Source: Malacoraja senta
Lineage: Eukaryota
Direction of reading: 5' to 3'
Assembly (NCBI GenBank): GCA_038087875.1
Contig: CM075988.1
Span: 19,036,001-19,096,000, forward strand
Length of the DNA: 60,000 nucleotides
Below the pieces are notes generated by a model, which saw only the letters and a list, made by a program, of their open reading frames with translations, did not search any database and was not told the origin of the DNA. The position numbers were made by a program, and so were the translations under genes. The stretch's first letter is position 1, and the number at the start of each line of letters is the position of its first letter. Below, one piece after another: positions 6,603-47,524 of the stretch.

Positions 6603-6980
6603 TTGTATTGTACCCTAGGTAAGTGGAGTATGAGGGCCAGGGCAGTTTACTGTTCTGGATGTCAGATGTATTGTATCCAGGGTAAGGGGAGTATGAGGGC
6701 CAGGGCAGTTTACTGTTCTGGATGTCAGATGTATTGTATCCAGGGTAAGTGGAGTATGAGGGCCAGGGCAGTTTACTGTTCTGGATGTCAGATGTATTGT
6801 ATCCAGGGTAAGGGGAGTATGAGGGCCAGGGCAGTTTACTGTTCTGGATGTCAGATGTATTGTATCCAGGGTAAGGGGAGTATGAGGGCCAGGGCTGTTT
6901 ACTGTTCTGGATGTCAGATGTATTGTATCCAGGCTAAGGGGAGTATGAGGGCCAGGGCAGTTTACTGTTCTGGATGTCAG
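6603..6980 (+). repeat. 63-bp tandem repeat, 6 copies, in frame (MYCIQGKGSMRARAVYCSGCQ)
   Basis: Units start at 6603, 6666, 6729, 6792, 6855 and 6918. Confidence 0.97.
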
Positions 6981-7875
6981 ATGTGGGAAGTCATGGAGTC
7001 TGATAGCCCTCCAGACGTCCACATCTGCGCCAGGTGTATCGAGATGGGGCTCCTAAGGGACCGTATTAGGAACCTGGAGCAGCAGCTCGATGGCCTCCGT
7101 CTGGTCAGGGAGAGCAAGGAAGTCATTGAGAGGAGTTACAGGGAGGTGGTCACTCCAAGACCACAGGAGGCAGTGGATCACGGTTGGGAGAGGCAAGGGG
7201 CACAGGCAGGGACTAGAGAGTACCCCGGTGGCTGTACACCTTGACAATATGTACTCCTGTTTGAGCACTGTTGGGGTGGACAGCCTACCTGGGGGTAGCG
7301 ACAGCGGCCGGGCCTCCGGTACAGAGACCGGTCCTGTTGCTCAGAAGGGTAAGGAAAAGAAGAGGAGGGCAATACTAATAGGGGACTCTATAGTTAGGGG
7401 GTTAGACAGGCGATTCTGTGGACGCAGTCGGGAGACCCGGATGGTAGTTTGCCTCCCTGGTGCCAGGGTCTGTGATGTGTCTCAAAGTGTCCAAGATATC
7501 CTGAAAGGGGAGGGAGAGGAGCCCGAGGTCGTGGTACATATAGGTACCAATGACATAGGTAAAAAAAGAGAAGAGGTCCTGAAAGGAGAATTTAGGGAGT
7601 TAGGAGGGGAGTTAAAGAGTAGGACAGCAAAGGTAACAATCTCGGGATTACTGCCTGTGCCACGCGACAGTGAGAGTAGGAATGGAGCGTGGTGGAGGAT
7701 AAATGCGTGGCTGAAGGACTGGTGCAGAGGGCAGGGATTCAAATTTCTGGATCATTGGGACCTCTTTTGTGGAAGGTGCGACCTGTACAAAAAGCATGGG
7801 TTGCACTTGAACCTGAGGGGGACCGATATCCTGGCGGGGAGATCTGCAAAGGCTACTGGGGAGACTTTAAACTAG
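6603..7875 (+). pseudogene. CR1 ORF1: zinc finger/coiled coil plus SGNH esterase-like domain, frameshifted near 7170
   Basis: Motifs CSGC…CARC, LLRDRIRNLEQQL, IGDSIVR, CLPGAR, VVHIGTND and GLHLN. Confidence 0.88.
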
Positions 7876-16247: not shown

Positions 16248-18281
16248 TTGTGGAAATCAACTTAGCCATTTGTCTTTAGATGTTTCCCTGTAAGACTCAT
16301 CCTAAGGATTAATTCCTACTCCTTTTCCACATACCGCTTCAACATTTAGTACCTCAAGGACTTACTCGATTTCTTTACAGAAGCAATATTTGATTCTTCC
16401 CCTCCTTATATCACACCTTCACAAAACAAACATCTCCAAACCTTTGGTCTTTTCCTGATGAGCTCAATTTTATTATGTCCCAACGCAAGTGTTTTCCCCA
16501 TTTATTCTGAAGGCCGCTCTCTGTCAGATCTCTGTATTTGTGAAGATGTCCTGCAATTTCTCAACCCCTTCCTCAACGTTAGATAGTGTTTCAGTGAATT
16601 TTTACTGTGGATAGACGTTGTCGCCTATTGCAGGGAGAAAACTATCCTGCTATATTGTACGTCTTTTTATCTTGAATCTACGCTCTACAACATGGAAACA
16701 GGCCCTTCATGCCGACCCTCGATCACCCGTTTGTACTATCTACGTTATCCCACTTTTGCATCCACTCCCTGCACACTATGGGCAATTTACAGAGTGCTAA
16801 TTAACCTACAAACCTCATATCTTTGGAATGCGGGAGGAAACCGGAGCGCCCGGTGGAAACCCACGTGGTCACTGGAAGAAATGTGCAAACTCCACATAGA
16901 CACCATCTGAGGTCAGGATCGAACCTGAGCCACTGCTGCTGAAAGACAGCAGTTCTATCAGACGTGTAACTCTGCTGCCTATTCTTCAAATATAAAACGT
17001 AATATTTCGGTTTCCTCACCCGTCACAATAAATAACACATCACAACTGCCCCACATAAATCCTGTACAAAATATCATTGTTCTTGAAATGAATTCAGTTT
17101 TAATTTACTCTCCATGAGATTTTAAGTTGAACTATTGGAATAAATGTGTTCAGCATCATTTTACTCCCCACGGTGCTTCTGATTTATATTTCATAATATC
17201 TGTTGGTTTACAGAAATATTTTTATAAAACTATTTCTTCGTTTTATATTGTTAGTACATCAAAGAGACATCTTTGCCTCCTTCCTTCTTGGGTGAATTCG
17301 ATTGTGGAATGGTGATGATTAATGTCTTTGTGGAGATGCTCTACATCACGACGAGCAATAATATTCCATCCACTTATCTGTCAGAGAAAAGGTACAAGAT
17401 AAATAACCCAATAACAGGAGAGAAAGCAGAGGGAAACAAGGAATCAGCAGGAAAAGTTGAGAGATAGATCAAACGCCCCACATTTGAGAACAAGCCATCA
17501 ACAGATAGAATAACACCCGCACCTGGCAGTCAAGAATTATAAGTTCGCCTTCAGAAATACAATTATGCAAAGGGGAGGTTTAATGTTCCCATTAAATCTG
17601 GATTTGAAAACCGAACGACGACAGTATGGGCTGGAATTGCCGGGGAATAGATCACACATACCACCGAGCAAATGTAAACAAAAGAAGGATGTGAGAAATA
17701 CATTAATTACTTGCACCGGTACGCTAGATGCATCATATACCTTCACTAGGAGGTTACCTGCTGACTCCAGTTCAGTTCAGTGTAGTTTATTGTCACGTGT
17801 ACCGAGTTACAGTGAAAAGGTTTTTGTTGCGTTCGAACCAGTCAGCAGAAAGACAATACACGATTACAATCAATCCATTTACAGTGCATAGATACATGAT
17901 AGGGGAATAACATTTAGTGCAAGGTAAATAACCAGCAAAGCCCAGTCAAGGATAGTCCATGGGACATCAAAAAGGTAGATAGTAGTTCAGCACTGGTCTC
18001 TGGTTATGGTAGGATGATTCAGTTGCATCTACACTGCATGTTGCCTCAGAAAAGCAGCAGGTATAATCAAAGAAGTGTCCCACCCCAGTCATTCCCCTTC
18101 TCCCTGATCCCGTCAGGCAGAAGATACCAAAGCTTGAAAGTATGGACCACCAGACGTAGAAACAGCGTTCCTCCCCCTATTCTCAGGCTTATGAATGCTC
18201 CTTCCAAATGCTAGGGTACTGTCTGATTCAGTTCTGCCACCATGAGGACATTGGGCTTTGTCTATGGAATTAATGCACCAC

Positions 18282-18335
18282 GGGGTGGGAGATTGCAACC
18301 TTCACGTGGTCCGCCCTGTTTTGGCTAATGTAATC
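18282..18335 (+). ncRNA. Putative HDV-like ribozyme
   Basis: P1 GGGGUGG/CCGCCCU, P2 GAUUGCA/UGUAAUC, P3 ACC/GGU, L3 UUCACGU, J4/2 CUAA (C18325). Confidence 0.78.
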
Positions 18336-18422
18336 AACCTGGCGTGCACAATCAAATAAGGTCAAATAGAACAAGTTGTCCTACAACTTTAGGCTGTGCA
18401 CGCCATACGCAAGAAGAAGAAG
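18282..18422 (+). mobile_element. ~140-bp ribozyme-headed short retroelement, copy 1
   Basis: TSD aatgcaccac (18272-18281 / 18423-18432), (gaa)n tail, and homology to the copies at 26254 and 36922. Confidence 0.9.
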
Positions 18423-19136
18423 AATGCACCACAATGCTGAGAACTATATTCTGCACCCTGTACCTTTCCCTTTGCTCTACCTATTGTACCTGGATTTGAC
18501 ATGAATGTATTTACTTATTGTATTATCTAATCTGATTGAACAACATGCAAAACCAAAGCTTTTCGCTGTACCTCGGTAAAAGGGATAATAATAATAAACC
18601 AAAACCTAAAAAAAGAAACTTTGAGTTAATGCAATGAATGACACACATCTAAATATGTAATACTCAATAATACACTCATTATTAACCATAATATTAGATA
18701 GCCATAATAGTGCATAAAAACGAAGGAACGATAGACACTGTCCATCGAAGGTCATGCTGTAGTTGCCAAGGTTAGTGTTGTGCAGTGTTCAAGAGCCTAA
18801 TGGTTGCTGGAAAGAAGCTGCTCTTGAACCTGGAGGTCACCGTTTCTAAGCCTCCTTCTTGTACCTTCTTCCCAATTGTAGTAGTGATATGAATGAGTGG
18901 CCAGGGTGGTGTAGATCTTGATGATACTAGTTGCCTTTTCAGGCAGCGCCTCCTCTAGGTCTCATCGATGGTGGGGAGGTCAGTACCTGTGATGGACTGG
19001 GCAATGTCTACCATTCTCTGCAGTCTCCCTCATTGCTGGGGATTCTAAATCAGGCCGTGACAAAAGAAACGCTCAGTATGTTCTCTACCATACACCTGAA
19101 GATGTTCAATAGAATATTTGGTAACATACTAACTCT

Positions 19137-25570: not shown

Positions 25571-26253
25571 CGAATTCGGATACCATTGAACTAGTGTAAG
25601 GGTGATAGACGGGTGGGCATGGACCCAGTGGGCTGAAGGGCCTGCTTCCATGCTGTATCTCTAAATTAAACCAAAGACAACAATCTATTACACAACCTAG
25701 CGCGGCGTTCCCTGAAATTACAAGGTTAAAGGATAATCTAATCGGTGCTTTCATTTGATAAAGATGCTGCTAATGGAATTGGAAGCATCTTAGTAAGCTA
25801 GTTAGGAAATGAGCAGTGCAGCAGGAGAGAAGGAATGAGGATAATGACCAGATATCCAAATAGACACGATGCAATAATGGGATTCCACAAAGGGCTGTGT
25901 CAGGGCTACATTTATTGACTGTATTTATAAATGACTTATCTGGAGGGACAGAAGGCACAAAAGGAAGTTTGTCAATGACACAAACAAAGATGTTATTGTA
26001 GACAGAGAAGGGGAAGATTAAACCACAAACAGATATCAATAGGTTGAACAAACGGGAAAAATCACCTCAAATAGATATCAATGAAGGCAAATATAACGTC
26101 TCACCGCGGAGTTTGAGTTTGAGTTTAGTTTATTGTCTCGTGTACCGACGTACAGCGAAGAGCTTTTGTTGCGTGCTAATCAGTCACGGAAAGACAATAC
26201 ATGATTACAATCGAGCCATCCAGAGTGTGCAGACGCATGTTGAAAGGAATTAT

Positions 26254-26307
26254 GGGGTGGGAGATTGCAACCTTCACGTGGTCCGCCCTGTTTCGACGAA
26301 TGCAATC
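26254..26307 (+). ncRNA. Putative minimal HDV/CPEB3-like ribozyme
   Basis: GGGGUGG-GA-GAUUGCA-ACC-UUCACGU-GGU-CCGCCCU-GU-UUCGA-CGAA-UGCAAUC gives a full nested double pseudoknot with a G1·U wobble and a catalytic C at 26297. Confidence 0.85.
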
Positions 26308-26398
26308 AACCTGGCGTGCACAATCAAATAAGATCAAATAGAACAAGTTGTCCTACAACTTTAGGCTGTGCACGCCATACGCAAGAAGAAGAAGAAGA
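26254..26398 (+). mobile_element. ~140-bp ribozyme-headed short retroelement, copy 2
   Basis: TSD tgaaaggaattat (26241-26253 / 26399-26411) and (gaa)n tail. Confidence 0.92.
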
Positions 26399-27639
26399 TG
26401 AAAGGAATTATGTGAATAACGTTTAGTGCAAAGCAAAGTCCGATCAAAGATAGTCCAAGGGTCTCCAATGAGGTAGATAATAGCTCAGGAGCACTGTAGT
26501 TGTTGGAAGGATGGTAGGATTTCACACCGTGCCTCATTTATGCCTCACAGTGAGACATCATACTTGCCTTCATTTATATCTATTTGAGGTGATTTTCCCC
26601 GTTCGTTCAATCTATTGACATTTGTTTGCGATTTAATCTTACCCTTCTCTGTCAATGACACAGTTGTTTGTGTCATTGGCATACTTCCTTTATGCCTTCT
26701 GTCCCTTCAGATGTCATTTTGTAAATACAGTAAATAAATGCAGTCCTGACACAGTTCTCTGTGGAATCCCATTATAGCATCATGTCTATTTGGATACCTG
26801 CTCATTATCCTTATCCCATCTCTCCCGTGGTTCTGCCAAGCTTGCATACACAACTTGCATTTGCTGGTTTGTGGCAGGAACTAACCTTATCTTGTCCATC
26901 ACCTTTACAGGTCAGGCAGCATCTGTGGAGAGAGAAGCAGAGTTAATATTTTTGAAAACTGGTCATTGACCGAAGTGTTAACCTCGGGTTCTCTCTCCAT
27001 ATATCCTGCCAGACCCACAGGATAGTTCCAGCGCTTTCAATTACTGCATCTGATTTCCCCACAAAAATGCGACTGTTATGTGTACAGATACAAGTGCAAG
27101 GCTCACGCAGTGTGGCAGGCTGGTGTGAGATGGGAACAGGGGGGTGGACATAAGAAGAACTGAGTTTGGAGGTAATTCTAAATTCCATTACTTGTTTTCC
27201 CTTTTGGGAATCCCATTCCTTTGTGTCTCTGGTGTGGTATCTCGGAATGGCGGCGTGGACCCAAGTGAACAAACAGCGAGTGCGGACACCAGGGACCTAG
27301 GGTTTGGAGGGGGAGCTGTTCCAGGAGGTTTACAGTTGTAACAGCCCATCATTTGGGGCAAGAGCACAATTGTGCAGAACCTTGTGGTTTAGATAAACCG
27401 TTTGGTGGGGGAGTTCCTGAGATGATGTGTAATATTGAACATTACGGCAAATCAATAAAAAATCAATAATATGAAGAAAACACTACCTGCAGCTGGGAGT
27501 ACTTCCATTTTAGTCAATCGCTTGATTTGACTGGATATACAGTGGCACACAAACAAAAGCTTTTTGTTGTACCTTGTAACATGTGCCATAGAACATAGAG
27601 TATAGAACATAGAACAGAATAGTACAGAACAGAACAGTA

Positions 27640-35572: not shown

Positions 35573-36921
35573 TTTTCCATAAAGGTGATCAGAACTAAAA
35601 TGATCCTTGTGACCATTTAAAAACAATATTGGTTATTTCAAAGAGTAAGTCGATGCCTGTCTGCATGGTAGCTGGAACTGTCAGTGTGACTGTAATTGGA
35701 TGCATATTCTACATTGAAACCATAATCTAGGGCTCATTAGAGGGAAAACGGTTCTCAACCTTATTAACTATCTCCAAGGAAGTGGATAAAAGGCAGGAGC
35801 GAAGCCCTTTCATTTTCCCGAACCCTCTTTGAACTGACTTAGCTTTCCCTGCAAATGGATTCATTATACAAAAGTAATGATGTATATCTAAAATATCAAG
35901 CCCGTTGATTCTTCATGACCATGCTATGGTCAAAGCTGCACCATGTGTAGAGGCATAATATCAAACTTCTCCTCATTCACCACCATCTTTGCTCAATAGA
36001 AAAAACACTGAGGAGAAATGGACAATTTATTTCATTTGAAACGAGTTAACACATCGTGCTAATGGGTCTCTGGTCTGATTAGGAATTGTTGGCACTACTT
36101 GAGAAATGATCCGACAACGCATCCCTGGTGATTCTCTGCACAGCAGACCACTGCAAGAACTCTGCACTCTTTTAAACATGTTATCACACTGGGCTTGATG
36201 TTTCAGTCTCCCAACTCTAAAGCGCGAATGGATATGAAAATAGAAGTTTCATCTGGGAGCATGAAATATTCAAGCTAACGTATGTATTGACTCCTATTTG
36301 TTCTCTGTGCGAGTCCATAAAGCTGATTCAACAAAGAAATGCTTGCATTTCGAATAGCGCCTTCTTCTCAATACAGGATGTCCCAAGGTACTCCACGGAG
36401 CAAAGTGAAATAAAATGTAAAACGCTGGACAGAATCAGCAGGTTAGTAGAAAGACAAACAGCCAACATTTGGGGTCGATGGTACTTCAACTGAATCTGGA
36501 AGGAAAGAAAGCGAGTTGGTTTTAAATTACATAGGAGGTGTGGAAGGAATAGGCAGAACTAAGCGATTATTTCTGATGGGTGAGGCCAGGGTTGGTGTGG
36601 GGATAAATTGCAGAAGTCACCTAATCAATAACTTAATGGTGAAAGGTGAATCATAGAACAAAAAAATAGAACATGGAGCTGTACAGCACAGTCGGCGACA
36701 CAGTGGCGCAGCAGTAGACTTGCTGCCTTACAGCACCAGAGGCCCAGATTTGATCCTGACTATGGGTGCTGTCTGTACGGAGTTTGTACGTTCTTCCTGT
36801 GACCATGTGGGTTTCCTCTGGGTGCTCCAGTCTCCCCCCACATTCCAAAGACGTGCAGCTTTGTAGGCTTCTGTAAATTGTCCCCAGTATGTAAGATAGA
36901 TCTTGTGTATGGATGATCGCT

Positions 36922-36975
36922 GGGGTGGAAGATTGCAACCTTCACGTGGTCCGCCCTGTTTCGACTAATGCAATC
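36922..36975 (+). ncRNA. Putative HDV-like ribozyme
   Basis: Same P1, P2 and P3 as the copy at 26254, with J1/2 AA and J4/2 CUAA (C36965). Confidence 0.82.
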
Positions 36976-37065
36976 AACTCGACGTGCACAAACGGAAGAT
37001 CAAATAGAACAAGTTGTCCAACAACTTTAGGCTGTGCACGCCACATGAAAGAAGAAAATTAAGAA
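36922..37065 (+). mobile_element. ~140-bp ribozyme-headed short retroelement, copy 3 (variant)
   Basis: TSD gatgatcgct / gatgatcact (36912-36921 / 37066-37075). Confidence 0.88.
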
Positions 37066-37312
37066 GATGATCACTGGTCGGCGTGGCCTTGGTAGGCCAA
37101 AGGGCAGAGTCAAGTCGAGTTTATTGTCATATGCACAAGTAGGGTGAGGTACAGGTACAATGAAAACCTTGCTTGCAGCAACATCACAGGTGTACAATAA
37201 TGCAAGGCCACCAGCATAATCAAGGACCAGTCTCACCCTGCACACTCCCTCCTCTCCCCTCTCCCTTCTGGAAAAATGTGCAGAAGTTTGAAAACGCATA
37301 TATCTCCAGATT

Positions 37313-44155: not shown

Positions 44156-44424
44156 ATCTCTGCTTTGAAGAAAAAGAAAGGAATTCTCCCCAATATGATG
44201 TTTCAGATGTGCAAGTTTAGTATAGGATTTTACTTCGGAGTCACGTGAGTGACTATGTGAAGAACCCGTCAGGGCGCATGCGCGACATATCGTCTAACGC
44301 ATTGTGCAGCGACTGGCGGGGAGGAGCATTCCCCGCAGCGGTAAGCTTAAAACCAGAGACCTACAGGTAAGTACTTACTCTGAGGTCGTTTGGAGTCTCC
44401 TTCTGTGTTACAGGAAGAACCACC

Positions 44425-45637
44425 ATGGACAGGACTCATACAAAGTCCAAACGGGCCGCTAAAAAACTGGCTGAGGAGGACCGCGAGAGCACAGGGAGCC
44501 AGCAGCGGCCGACTGCAGCATCGCTATCTATGCGATCAGCAGTCTCTGTCCCGGCACCTGTGCAGTCTGGGTCACCACAGGCTGACAACAACGCCAAACG
44601 GAAGCAGGGCAACGCACATGGACTCCGAAGTATCGGGCCATGAGCAAACGCCGCTGGCAGACAGCGACAGTGGTCGCATATCCCGTCTGGAGTGGCTAGT
44701 GGAGCCATTGCTTCACCATGACACACTCCGGGAGAAGGAGTCACGTCACTACGGGCCTCCTAGGACGCCCATGGCAGCACCTTTTTCAGGGCTGCACAAT
44801 GTATCTCCCTCGACAGAGGGGAGCATTGGGAGTCATTTCTGGGCTGACTCCGTACAAGGGTTGGCTGAAGATACCTCAAGTATGCTGGTGGTGCCAGAAG
44901 AGAAGATGCTGGGAATGGTAACGAAGTTTGCGGTGCCTCCACAGTCAGGGCAGCCACTGCAACCAGAACTAGCAGCCAGCATTGACTACCTTTCAACCCA
45001 TCAATTACAGGAACAGGCGCTCAATGAAACCACTGCAAAATAGCTGGCACCAGGGAACTCTATCTCACTCAATGTTCCAGCAGTGAATACCTCCATCTGG
45101 GGACATATTGGTGCAGGTATAAGGGCACAGGAGGTGCAGATGCAGAAGATCCTCAAACTTCTAGCTTCGGGGATTACAGCATTTGCCCGATCGGTGGATG
45201 ACTCGGAAATGACAGAGGCTCAGCAAGATGCTCTGGCGCTCCTCTGCAATACGCAGTTTGAGATCAACTGCTTCCGAAAAACCGCCATCCGCCCAGCCTT
45301 GAACCCCAAATTTGCGGCTCTGTGCAAGACCAACACCACACAGCCGCCAATTTTGTTATTCGGGGGCAACTTTCCCAAACAGGTTAAAGACCTGGATGAA
45401 GAGGCGAAAGCCGCCGGGCTCATTAAGGCTCCATCGGGCAAAACACCTCGGCGACAGCACCCCTACGCATCCACCAGCAGGCCACGTCACGTCGAAGCTG
45501 GTGAAAGCTGGAAGGCCGCATCTCAAGGACAGCAGAGGTCTTTTTTAGACCGCTGCCCAGAGCGACCTTTGTGGAACATGCGCCAACCCCGAACTCCAGC
45601 ATCTCAACCGGCCAAGAAACAGAAGAAGAAGAGATGA
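44425..45637 (+). pseudogene. DIRS gag-like ORF1 (frameshift and stop)
   Basis: MDRTHTKSKR… and QKILKLLASGIT…QFEINCFRKTAIRPALNPKFAALC…LFG. Homologous to the ORF at 54240-55497. Confidence 0.75.
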
Positions 45638-47524
45638 ACACCCCACTGGTAACCATGGAGGTAGGTGGGTCTGGTTCCTCCCAGGACACAGCAGGTGCAA
45701 GGGATACACTTGTTCGGGGTAGGTTGCACTTGTTTTGGGAGGCATGGAGCTCTATAACCTCTGATTCTTATATACTGCATAGTGTTCAAGGATACGAAAT
45801 TGAATTCATAAACAAACACCTTCCTCCGGTTCAGCATGCACCCAGCAGATCATTTATGCTATCACAACAAGAGAAGTTGGATGGTCATGCTGAACGTAAG
45901 AGGCTATATGCTAAAGGTGTAATTGAGAGATCTCAATATGACTCTCTAGAATTTGTGTCAAACATTTTCACAAAAAAGAAAAAGGATGGTGGGTGTCGCA
46001 TCATCATCGATTTGACAAAACTGAACACATTTGTGCAGTATACTCATTTCAAAATGGAAACCTTTGTCACGGCCAAACAATTGATTTCCGAAGGCTACTT
46101 CATGGCATGCATCGATTTAAAAGATGCATACTATTTGGTGCCTATACACAAGGATCAACGCCGATATCTGAAGTTTAACTGGATGGGGCAGCTTTGGCAG
46201 TACAAAGCACTGCCTAATGGGTTGACCTCAGCCTCCAGACTGTTCACCAAATTACTGAAACCAGCTCTGGCGTTTCTTCGGAAACAAAAACATATTGTCA
46301 TGGCGTATTTAGATGACATACTAATCGTGGATAAAACCTACAAATTAGCCAAAACAGCTGTTACAGCTACCATATGTCTGTTTGAGAAACTGGGGTTTAT
46401 CATCCACGACTATGGACTATTTGGGATTCACCATTAATTCAGTTCACATGACTGTGACTTTGCCTAGGGGCAAGGGAACTGAATTAATGGAAGTTTGCAG
46501 CAACCTTGCTGTCATCAGTCAACCATCCATCAGACAAGTAGCTAGGGTGATTGGCAAACTCGTAGCTGCTTTTCCAGCCACACAGTTTGGACCTTTGCAC
46601 TACCAAACATTACAGAGAGCAAAGGTGCAAGCACTTAAACATCATGCTGGTCATTTCGACAGACCAATGCAATTACCAACAAAAGCTATTTTGGAACTCC
46701 GATGGTAGATGCATAACATCCGGCGTTCCTTCAGCTCCATTATTATTAGCAACCCGTCAGTTGTATTACAGACTGATGCCAGCGCTCAAGGTTGGGGTGC
46801 CACCAACACCATCTCCAGTTGTGGTGGCAGATGGGATGCGCATGAATCATCTCTACTTTATACACTTGGTATAAATTATTTGGAAATGTTGGGAGCATTC
46901 TATGGTCTGAATGCATACTGTTCAAAAATGCATCATCTGCATGTTCGCCTGCAAATAGATATTACCACTGTGGTGGCCTATATTAATCACATGGGTGGAA
47001 TCAGATCGATATCATGTGATGATCTGGCCAATTCAATCTGGCAATGGTGTATCAACAGAAACATTTGGATATCTGCTATTTACCTACCAGGTAAACTCAA
47101 TTCAGTGGCAGACACCAGGTCACGAAAATTTAATGACAACACCGAATGGATGTTGGACCCCAAAGTGTTTGCAGACATCATAGCATGATATGGAACACCA
47201 GATATCGATCTATTTGCATCTAAGCTTAACCACCAGTTGCCGACATATGTTGCGTGGGAACCAGACCCTGGGGCAGCAGCGATGGACGCATTTTCGCTGC
47301 ACTGGGGAAATTTGTTTTTCTATGCATTTCCCCCTTTCTGCCTCAACAGTCGGGTCTTACGCAAAATACAACAAGACTCTGCGTCAGGTATTTTGGTAGT
47401 ACCCGACTGGCCTACCATGGTTCCCTGTGGTTCTCGACATGGTTTCAGAACCATGTATGGCCGTCGCCAAACGACCAGACTTGATGGTCCATCCTGTAAC
47501 AGGCGAAAGTCATCCATGCCATGA
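45571..47524 (+). pseudogene. DIRS pol: RT, RNase H and Dam-like methyltransferase domain (disrupted)
   Basis: KKDGGCRIIIDL, IDLKDAY, YLDD (46306-46317), TDAS…GWG, INYLE, NSVADTRSR and DLFAS…DAF…YAFPPF. Confidence 0.92.

Follow-up and report, generated by a model that had tools for sequence, protein, structure and literature searches.

Three copies of a 140-nt repeat in the window (the whole 60-kb stretch of DNA that was analysed) begin at the same base, each directly behind a short target-site duplication (TSD), which raises the question of what sets so exact a 5' border and how a unit without coding capacity can spread. An earlier reading, made from the sequence alone (the sequence-only reading), had placed GGGGTGG starts at 18282, 26254 and 36922; we confirmed all three, and each adjoins the 3' end of its 5' TSD. 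All three copies lie on the forward strand, with copy 1 (18282-18422) 96.5% and copy 3 (36922-37065) 88% identical to copy 2 (26254-26398), and a sensitive blastn search detected no fourth copy in the 60-kb window. The (GAA)n endings that had been described for all three were present in copies 1 and 2, whereas the tail of copy 3 is an interrupted, degenerate (GAA)n. As claimed, the targets are unrelated, every copy sitting in its own, different host repeat. The left and right flanks were searched separately against the window together with 786 kb of retrieved loci, and in uninterrupted host repeats the flanks overlapped by 10 bp for copy 1 (3 loci), by 13 bp for copy 2 (1 locus; 22-24 bp at 5 others) and by 10 bp for copy 3 (6 loci). 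Thus, flank overlap equals TSD length, and the TSDs are true insertion duplications. Copies 2 and 3 leave 1-2 nt of uncertainty at the junction, because G or GG stands behind their 3' TSD copy as well. The features of the three copies are collected in Table 1. At least 54% of the window consists of repeats; it further contains a 63-bp tandem array (6604-6984), a 1.26-kb inverted pair (9427-10683/37578-38834) and a long LINE copy (44384-46871) with a reverse-transcriptase (RT) domain, RVT_1, at 45505-46434. No host gene was found in the window, where a scan of 84 of the 119 open reading frames in unmasked DNA yielded no domains other than retroelement-type ones.

Table 1. Coordinates of the element copies within the window
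Feature	Position	Strand	Description
Copy 1, 5' TSD	18272-18281	+	10 bp, exact; empty-site overlap of 10 in 3 host-repeat copies
Copy 1, head	18282-18335	+	predicted minimal HDV-like ribozyme fold, descriptor with 0 mismatches; same as the parent LINE's 5' end
Copy 1, P1	18282-88/18311-17	+	pseudoknot descriptor
Copy 1, P2	18291-97/18329-35	+	pseudoknot descriptor
Copy 1, P3 and L3	P3 18298-300/18308-10; L3 18301-07	+	pseudoknot descriptor
Copy 1, P1.1 G and predicted catalytic C	G 18318; C 18325	+	pseudoknot descriptor; P4 absent
Copy 1, middle	18336-18380	+	remaining piece of the LINE 5' UTR and a rearranged part
Copy 1, 11-bp stem	5' arm 18340-18350; 3' arm 18395-18405	+	folding done on copy 2, z -4.4
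Copy 1, 3' part	18381-18422	+	from the parent LINE's 3' end, with the stop codon region and a short 3' UTR; (GAA)n tail
Copy 1, 3' TSD	18423-18432	+	exact match to 18272-18281
Copy 2, TSDs	5' 26241-26253; 3' 26399-26411	+	13 bp, exact
Copy 2	26254-26398	+	145 nt; predicted fold 26254-26307, (GAA)n tail
Copy 2, predicted catalytic C and stem	C 26297; stem 26312-22/26367-77	+	descriptor; folding
Copy 3, TSDs	5' 36912-36921; 3' 37066-37075	+	10 bp, 1 mismatch
Copy 3	36922-37065	+	144 nt, other subfamily; predicted fold 36922-36975, degenerate tail

The first 54 nt of each copy, its head, are predicted to adopt an HDV-like ribozyme fold. A pseudoknot descriptor applied to both strands of the window returned exactly three matches, at 18282, 26254 and 36922, each with 0 mismatches. 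Every copy shows a 7-bp P1 opening on a G.U pair, a 2-nt J1/2, a 7-bp P2, a 3-bp P3 with a 7-nt L3, the P1.1 G and C-N-A-A before P2', with 17 of 17 pairs formed in all three; the helices make up a nested double pseudoknot, and L3 begins with pyrimidines as in HDV-like ribozymes. The same descriptor gave 0 perfect and 2 relaxed matches in 1.2 Mb of Markov sequence and none in 5000 shuffles, and the fold is far beyond chance. P4 is absent, 5-6 nt standing in its place, and the predicted head fits the minimal (P4-less) subgroup of HDV-like ribozymes. A two-pair hairpin on a UUCG loop within the P4 replacement could sequester the predicted catalytic C. Rfam at the gathering score returned no match in the window, nor in any of 14 LINE loci, and around copy 2 at E 10 the minimal head went unscored, two chance matches alone being reported. 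ViennaRNA gave no support for the 54-mer head (z 0.2-1.0), a result without weight as evidence because the program cannot fold pseudoknots. No hammerhead ribozyme was detected by Rfam, which places the element outside the retrozyme/hammerhead SINE-like class, and the short copies are monomers between TSDs without terminal repeats or tandem units.

From three copies in 60 kb the sequence-only reading had expected a large family. We counted sequence patterns across the 1.94-Gb genome, with reversed-pattern controls at 0, and obtained 4,636 exact matches to a 23-nt 3'-end pattern, 2,346 exact matches to a 29-nt core pattern and 8,732 matches to a 28-nt core pattern with up to 2 mismatches, hence at least 8,732 ribozyme cores. 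The family is therefore large, comprising thousands of copies, but not the ~100,000 implied by window density, because the window is about 11 times denser than the genome mean (3 copies versus 0.27 expected, P=0.003). The 5' borders were analyzed in the first 100 listed matches to the 3'-end pattern, all of them exact and from the first 39 Mb of contig 1, so that the sample leans young; after removal of 3 segmental duplicates it comprised 3 LINE 3' ends and 94 short copies. Although chosen by their 3' end, 88 of the 94 short copies carry a complete head and 6 are truncated. Ragged 5' ends were looked for and not seen, 75 of the 94 aligning from G1 and 88 from position 6 or earlier; a search for conserved sequence 5' of G1 likewise found none, with at most 17 of 30 bases identical among 3,828 pairs of the 88 copies. 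A TSD is adjacent in 77 of the 88 complete copies, with none adjoining in the other 11 (swapped-flank control 3/261), and its length is 8-13 bp with a mode of 11, one TSD being 17 bp. It adjoins G1 exactly in 55 of the 77, with 1-3 extra bases in 17 and 1-5 bases missing in 5, so that the junction deviates by 1-5 nt in 22 of the 77. The hallmarks of target-primed reverse transcription, which had been proposed as the route of insertion, are present: a TSD mode of 11 bp, a microsatellite tail and a LINE-derived 3' end. The 88 flanks show a weak target bias, with T at -14/-13 and A at -12/-11 on the nick side, and T is the last TSD base (-1) in 45 of them. Furthermore, contigs from runs of four organisms, one possibly the source, break at 26253/26254, and their flanks differ from one another (198-283 contigs per place and an agreement of 0.33-0.34, among the matches listed). 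In contigs of four runs presumed to be RNA, which are unable to reveal RNA start sites, the element is embedded in longer, varied sequences; this fits read-through transcription.

Conservation within the head was assessed in the same 88 short copies. The predicted catalytic C is retained in 84, the A of C-N-A in all 88 and G1 in 78, and all pairs and core bases are intact in only 35. Variants shared by at least 10% of the copies number 5 in nt 1-54, located at J1/2 position 8, P1 position 32, loop 42 and mid J4/2, and that at P1 position 32 exchanges U-A and U.G, so the pair is preserved; nt 55-101 contain 12 shared variant sites, or about 8 events. Constrained positions of the head differed from nt 55-101 in a post hoc Fisher test (0/40 versus 8/47, p=0.007). 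A promoter or a protein-binding site in nt 1-54 would likewise account for this conservation. A skew between C-to-T and G-to-A changes at the catalytic CpG (3 versus 13) was considered as evidence and rejected, as the neighbouring CpG is likewise skewed (5 versus 15).

The sequence-only reading had overlooked the parent of the element. Some matches to the 3'-end pattern continue upstream into a LINE C-terminus, and the 140-nt element is an internally deleted Vingi-like LINE that consists of the ribozyme head and the last ~40 nt. The head is common to the LINEs L223, L226, L227 and L221, in which it runs on into the ORF, and L226 and L227 begin at G1; the 3' end of the element is common to L220, L221 and L230, and in contigs from runs presumed to be RNA, LINE sequence joins at 18381 of copy 1. 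In about 3.1 kb, the near-complete LINEs L223 and L220 contain the head followed by a short 5' UTR and one APE+RT frame. Parent copies are old and broken (about 85-93% alike), and no intact frame was present among those inspected, every one being broken. Pfam detected no RNase H in the L223 pieces, P0001, P0004 or L231, and public relatives are ~1000-aa APE+RT proteins without RNase H (301 matches among 8,000 scored), of which the closest intact one among the 120 matches listed, P0001, has 1019 aa and is 72% identical over the RT piece; a metagenome scan for relatives of P0001 found none. A Vingi protein of 993 aa has been described (PMC3708506), and PMC13708176 describes Vingi as without an RNase H domain and Ingi as having one. 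As predicted from its sequence, the parent architecture (~1000-aa single ORF, APE+RT, no RNase H, about 3.1 kb) is of the Vingi type. We use the name Vingi-like because the placement is by architecture rather than by an RT tree that includes labelled Vingi proteins.

The LINE inserts also show which property of the short copies is informative. A LINE-type 3' pattern has 169 matches genome-wide, and of 46 inspected, 8 carry the ribozyme head whereas 38 are headless and ragged, measuring about 60-1,684 nt (two being a duplicate pair). The earlier claim of full-length insertion is borne out by 88 complete copies in 94, but completeness is mostly expected from the short size alone (about 82%), as 31 of the 38 headless inserts reach at least 140 nt. 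Thus, completeness is mostly a size effect, and the precise border is the informative feature. L197 (1.6 kb), L170, L120 and the L104/L110/L112/L173 group arose by separate internal deletions, which retained the head but differ in their joins; most of these derivatives start at G1 after a TSD. In the 5' UTR and 3' UTR of the parent LINE (L223, L230), a short inverted repeat surrounds a common palindromic hexamer. The commonest short subfamily has a changed 5' arm that extends this inverted repeat to 11 bp (18340-18350/18395-18405), which suggests that selection may have favoured pairing of the two ends.

Two further LINE families occur in the genome (RT identity about 42-48%). Their heads differ in sequence and are predicted to fold into the same topology, with P4 present. 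The strict descriptor (0 mismatches) missed these heads and the relaxed descriptor detected them. Both scored in Rfam below the gathering score: the family 2 head (L235, - strand 3948-3870) as CPEB3 with 18.2 bits (E 0.017), and the family 3 head (L241, + strand 1639-1706), which opens on A-U instead of G.U, as HDV-F-prausnitzii with 36.7 bits (E 1e-5). Across the families ACC/GGU in P3 is replaced by GCG/CGC, and P1 and P2 are altered on both sides; a MAFFT alignment of the heads mis-registers P1 and P2'. Helices, L3, the P1.1 G and C-N-A are thus kept in three LINE families while the sequence changes. In family 2 the family's own G1 is the start in 24 of 30 loci, with unlike flanks, and the head pattern has 53 matches genome-wide. 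This family, also found at loci L243-L272, is a younger Vingi-like LINE with copies 94-97% alike, frames of up to 886 aa and a TAAA tail, and it combines a full-size CPEB3-like head with short deletion derivatives of 280-490 nt. At the family 3 locus L241, a second head-like copy lies 1.4 kb upstream, at + 239.

These sequence features support the sequence-only reading and make it likely, in our judgement, that the element spreads by excising itself at G1 from longer transcripts and being inserted by the endonuclease and RT of a LINE. Host Pol II transcription would run through an element copy, and the predicted fold would cleave itself just 5' of G1, so that every RNA begins at G1 whatever lies upstream. 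The LINE protein would then bind the 3' end of the element in trans, as the common 3' end, the tail and the TSD pattern suggest, nick the target with a stagger of ~11 nt and prime reverse transcription on the (GAA)n tail. With 140 nt the RNA would be short enough for copying to the end, leaving 0-3 extra bases at the junction, and a new copy in a transcribed region could become a new source for which no promoter is necessary.

The same border could arise if the head were mainly an internal Pol II promoter that starts at +1, like Pr77 of L1Tc; the precise end would then be a start site, and the fold secondary, slow, or a structure that protects the 5' end or binds protein. Genomic ends and sequence conservation are alike under both models, and in L1Tc/NARTc, of the Ingi clade that is sister to Vingi, the first 77 nt are described as both promoter and ribozyme (PMC3383444, PMC8256844), so by analogy the two functions can coexist in one head. 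However, three LINE families keep the helices, L3, the P1.1 G and C-N-A despite sequence change, upstream transduction is absent from the 88 copies, and each of the two families tested for its border starts on base 1 of a covarying pseudoknot, which a promoter-only model does not need. We therefore regard a head that is mainly a promoter as unlikely.

Self-cleavage might instead be confined to the parent LINE, with the P4-less head now dead or nearly dead and the sharp end derived from a small number of master copies with transcripts that by chance begin at G1. The very short P4 replacement with its possible misfold, the lack of an Rfam score for the minimal head and the age and decay of the parent copies (about 85-93% alike) would all suit such a history, which is nonetheless improbable to a high degree: the P4-less head is already present in the parent LINE, G1 is the first base in several subfamilies and in deletion derivatives of independent origin alike, and the core is spared by shared variants. 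A fixed start without a ribozyme would also be possible for a plain Pol III SINE or a hairpin repeat arisen by chance; full length is the rule among short SINEs, and size alone predicts about 82% complete copies. Pattern searches found no A or B box, though, there was no tRNA, 5S or 7SL match, the head is the LINE's own 5' end and the fold is far beyond chance; the LINE parentage largely refutes this explanation, to which we assign hardly any probability.

The heads also point to the CPEB3 ribozyme of mammals (RF00622). It has the same L3 heptamer and the same single-pair P1.1 layout as the element, whereas it is single-copy and intronic with P4 present, and the window element receives no score on RF00622. 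Compared by eye, the family 2 head and the window L3 resemble nt 2-74 of Vingi-2_Gav (PMC5786205 supplement), and the 5' end of this gharial element is identical to the Rfam CPEB3 consensus at 38 of 40 positions, from the element's second base. Moreover, the alligator SINE2-1_AMi, derived from Vingi-2_Gav, contains the same fold in its body with a 12-nt P4 interior like that of the CPEB3 model. The likeness to CPEB3 is not remarked on in the part of PMC5786205 at hand, and the main text of the ancestral-CPEB3 paper (PMC8233481) contains neither 'transpos' nor 'origin'. The sequence match suggests that the mammalian CPEB3 ribozyme may be a domesticated Vingi head, and it opens the origin of the best-known mammalian ribozyme to direct testing. 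On balance we lean slightly towards the joint proposition that the Vingi clade begins with CPEB3-type ribozymes, that the 140-nt element is the smallest promoter-free retroelement of this kind and provides the first role in an animal genome for ribozymes that lack P4, and that the CPEB3 ribozyme is a domesticated Vingi head.

Ribozyme-headed short LINE derivatives are already known, as R2 SIDEs and NARTc/RIME; as far as we searched, the P4-less head, the 140-nt size and Vingi as a ribozyme-bearing clade are new. No title or abstract on a Vingi ribozyme or this family was found in a search that left aside Ruminski 2011 and Kojima 2011, and priority is uncertain. The R2 SIDEs of Drosophila, for which cleavage has been demonstrated (PMC3414825, Eickbush and Eickbush 2012), are described, like the element, as non-autonomous units that join a 5' HDV-like ribozyme to a LINE 3' end; the 5' junctions of both are mostly precise, with extra bases in some cases, and a promoter is not needed by R2 SIDEs and probably not by the element either. 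In contrast, they are 529 bp long, site-specific in 28S rDNA and rare, whereas the element is 140 nt long, dispersed, APE-type and P4-less, with ~11-bp TSDs and thousands of copies. Cleavage has likewise been demonstrated for the ribozyme-headed short derivatives of L1Tc/Ingi, NARTc and SIDER (PMC4035085). NARTc, RIME and SIDERs of trypanosomatids resemble the element as short, dispersed derivatives of APE-type LINEs with an HDV-like head and TSDs, and the L1Tc/Ingi clade is the sister clade to Vingi; they differ in their 77-nt Pr77 head, which is also a promoter, in their protist hosts and in a parent, Ingi, reported to have RNase H (PMC13708176), which the element's parent LINE is without.

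According to a review (PMC6765202), there are HDV-like ribozymes with many copies in which the downstream sequence is conserved and the upstream sequence differs from copy to copy. Delta-like ribozymes lacking P4 have been reported from metagenomes and phages, with origin and function described as mostly open (PMC10879173); drz-Mtgn-1 and the theta ribozymes share with the head the lack of P4, a catalytic C placed first in J4/2 (predicted in the head) and a length of about 54 nt, yet they come from metagenomes and, beside tRNAs, from gut phages, whereas the element's head belongs to an animal nuclear retroelement. The family is a source of natural variants, dated and numbering in the thousands, of a single minimal HDV-like fold. 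It also gives a 140-nt outline of what a Vingi-like LINE needs in cis: a ribozyme head, a 5'-3' stem and a 3' end of about 40 nt. Work to engineer Vingi elements for RNA-only gene insertion keeps the native 5' and 3' UTRs (PMC13708176), and a self-cleaving head would explain the retention of the 5' UTR. Finally, Vingi-1_EE (cited in PMC5786205) and the element are alike as bipartite, internally deleted derivatives of a ~3.1-kb LINE, and both parents are of the single-ORF APE+RT type, described for Vingi-1_EE as without RNase H. Kojima asked why bipartite derivatives arise only from RTE, Ingi, Vingi and R2 (PMC5786205), and the present element bears on that question, since of these four Vingi alone had no listed ribozyme.
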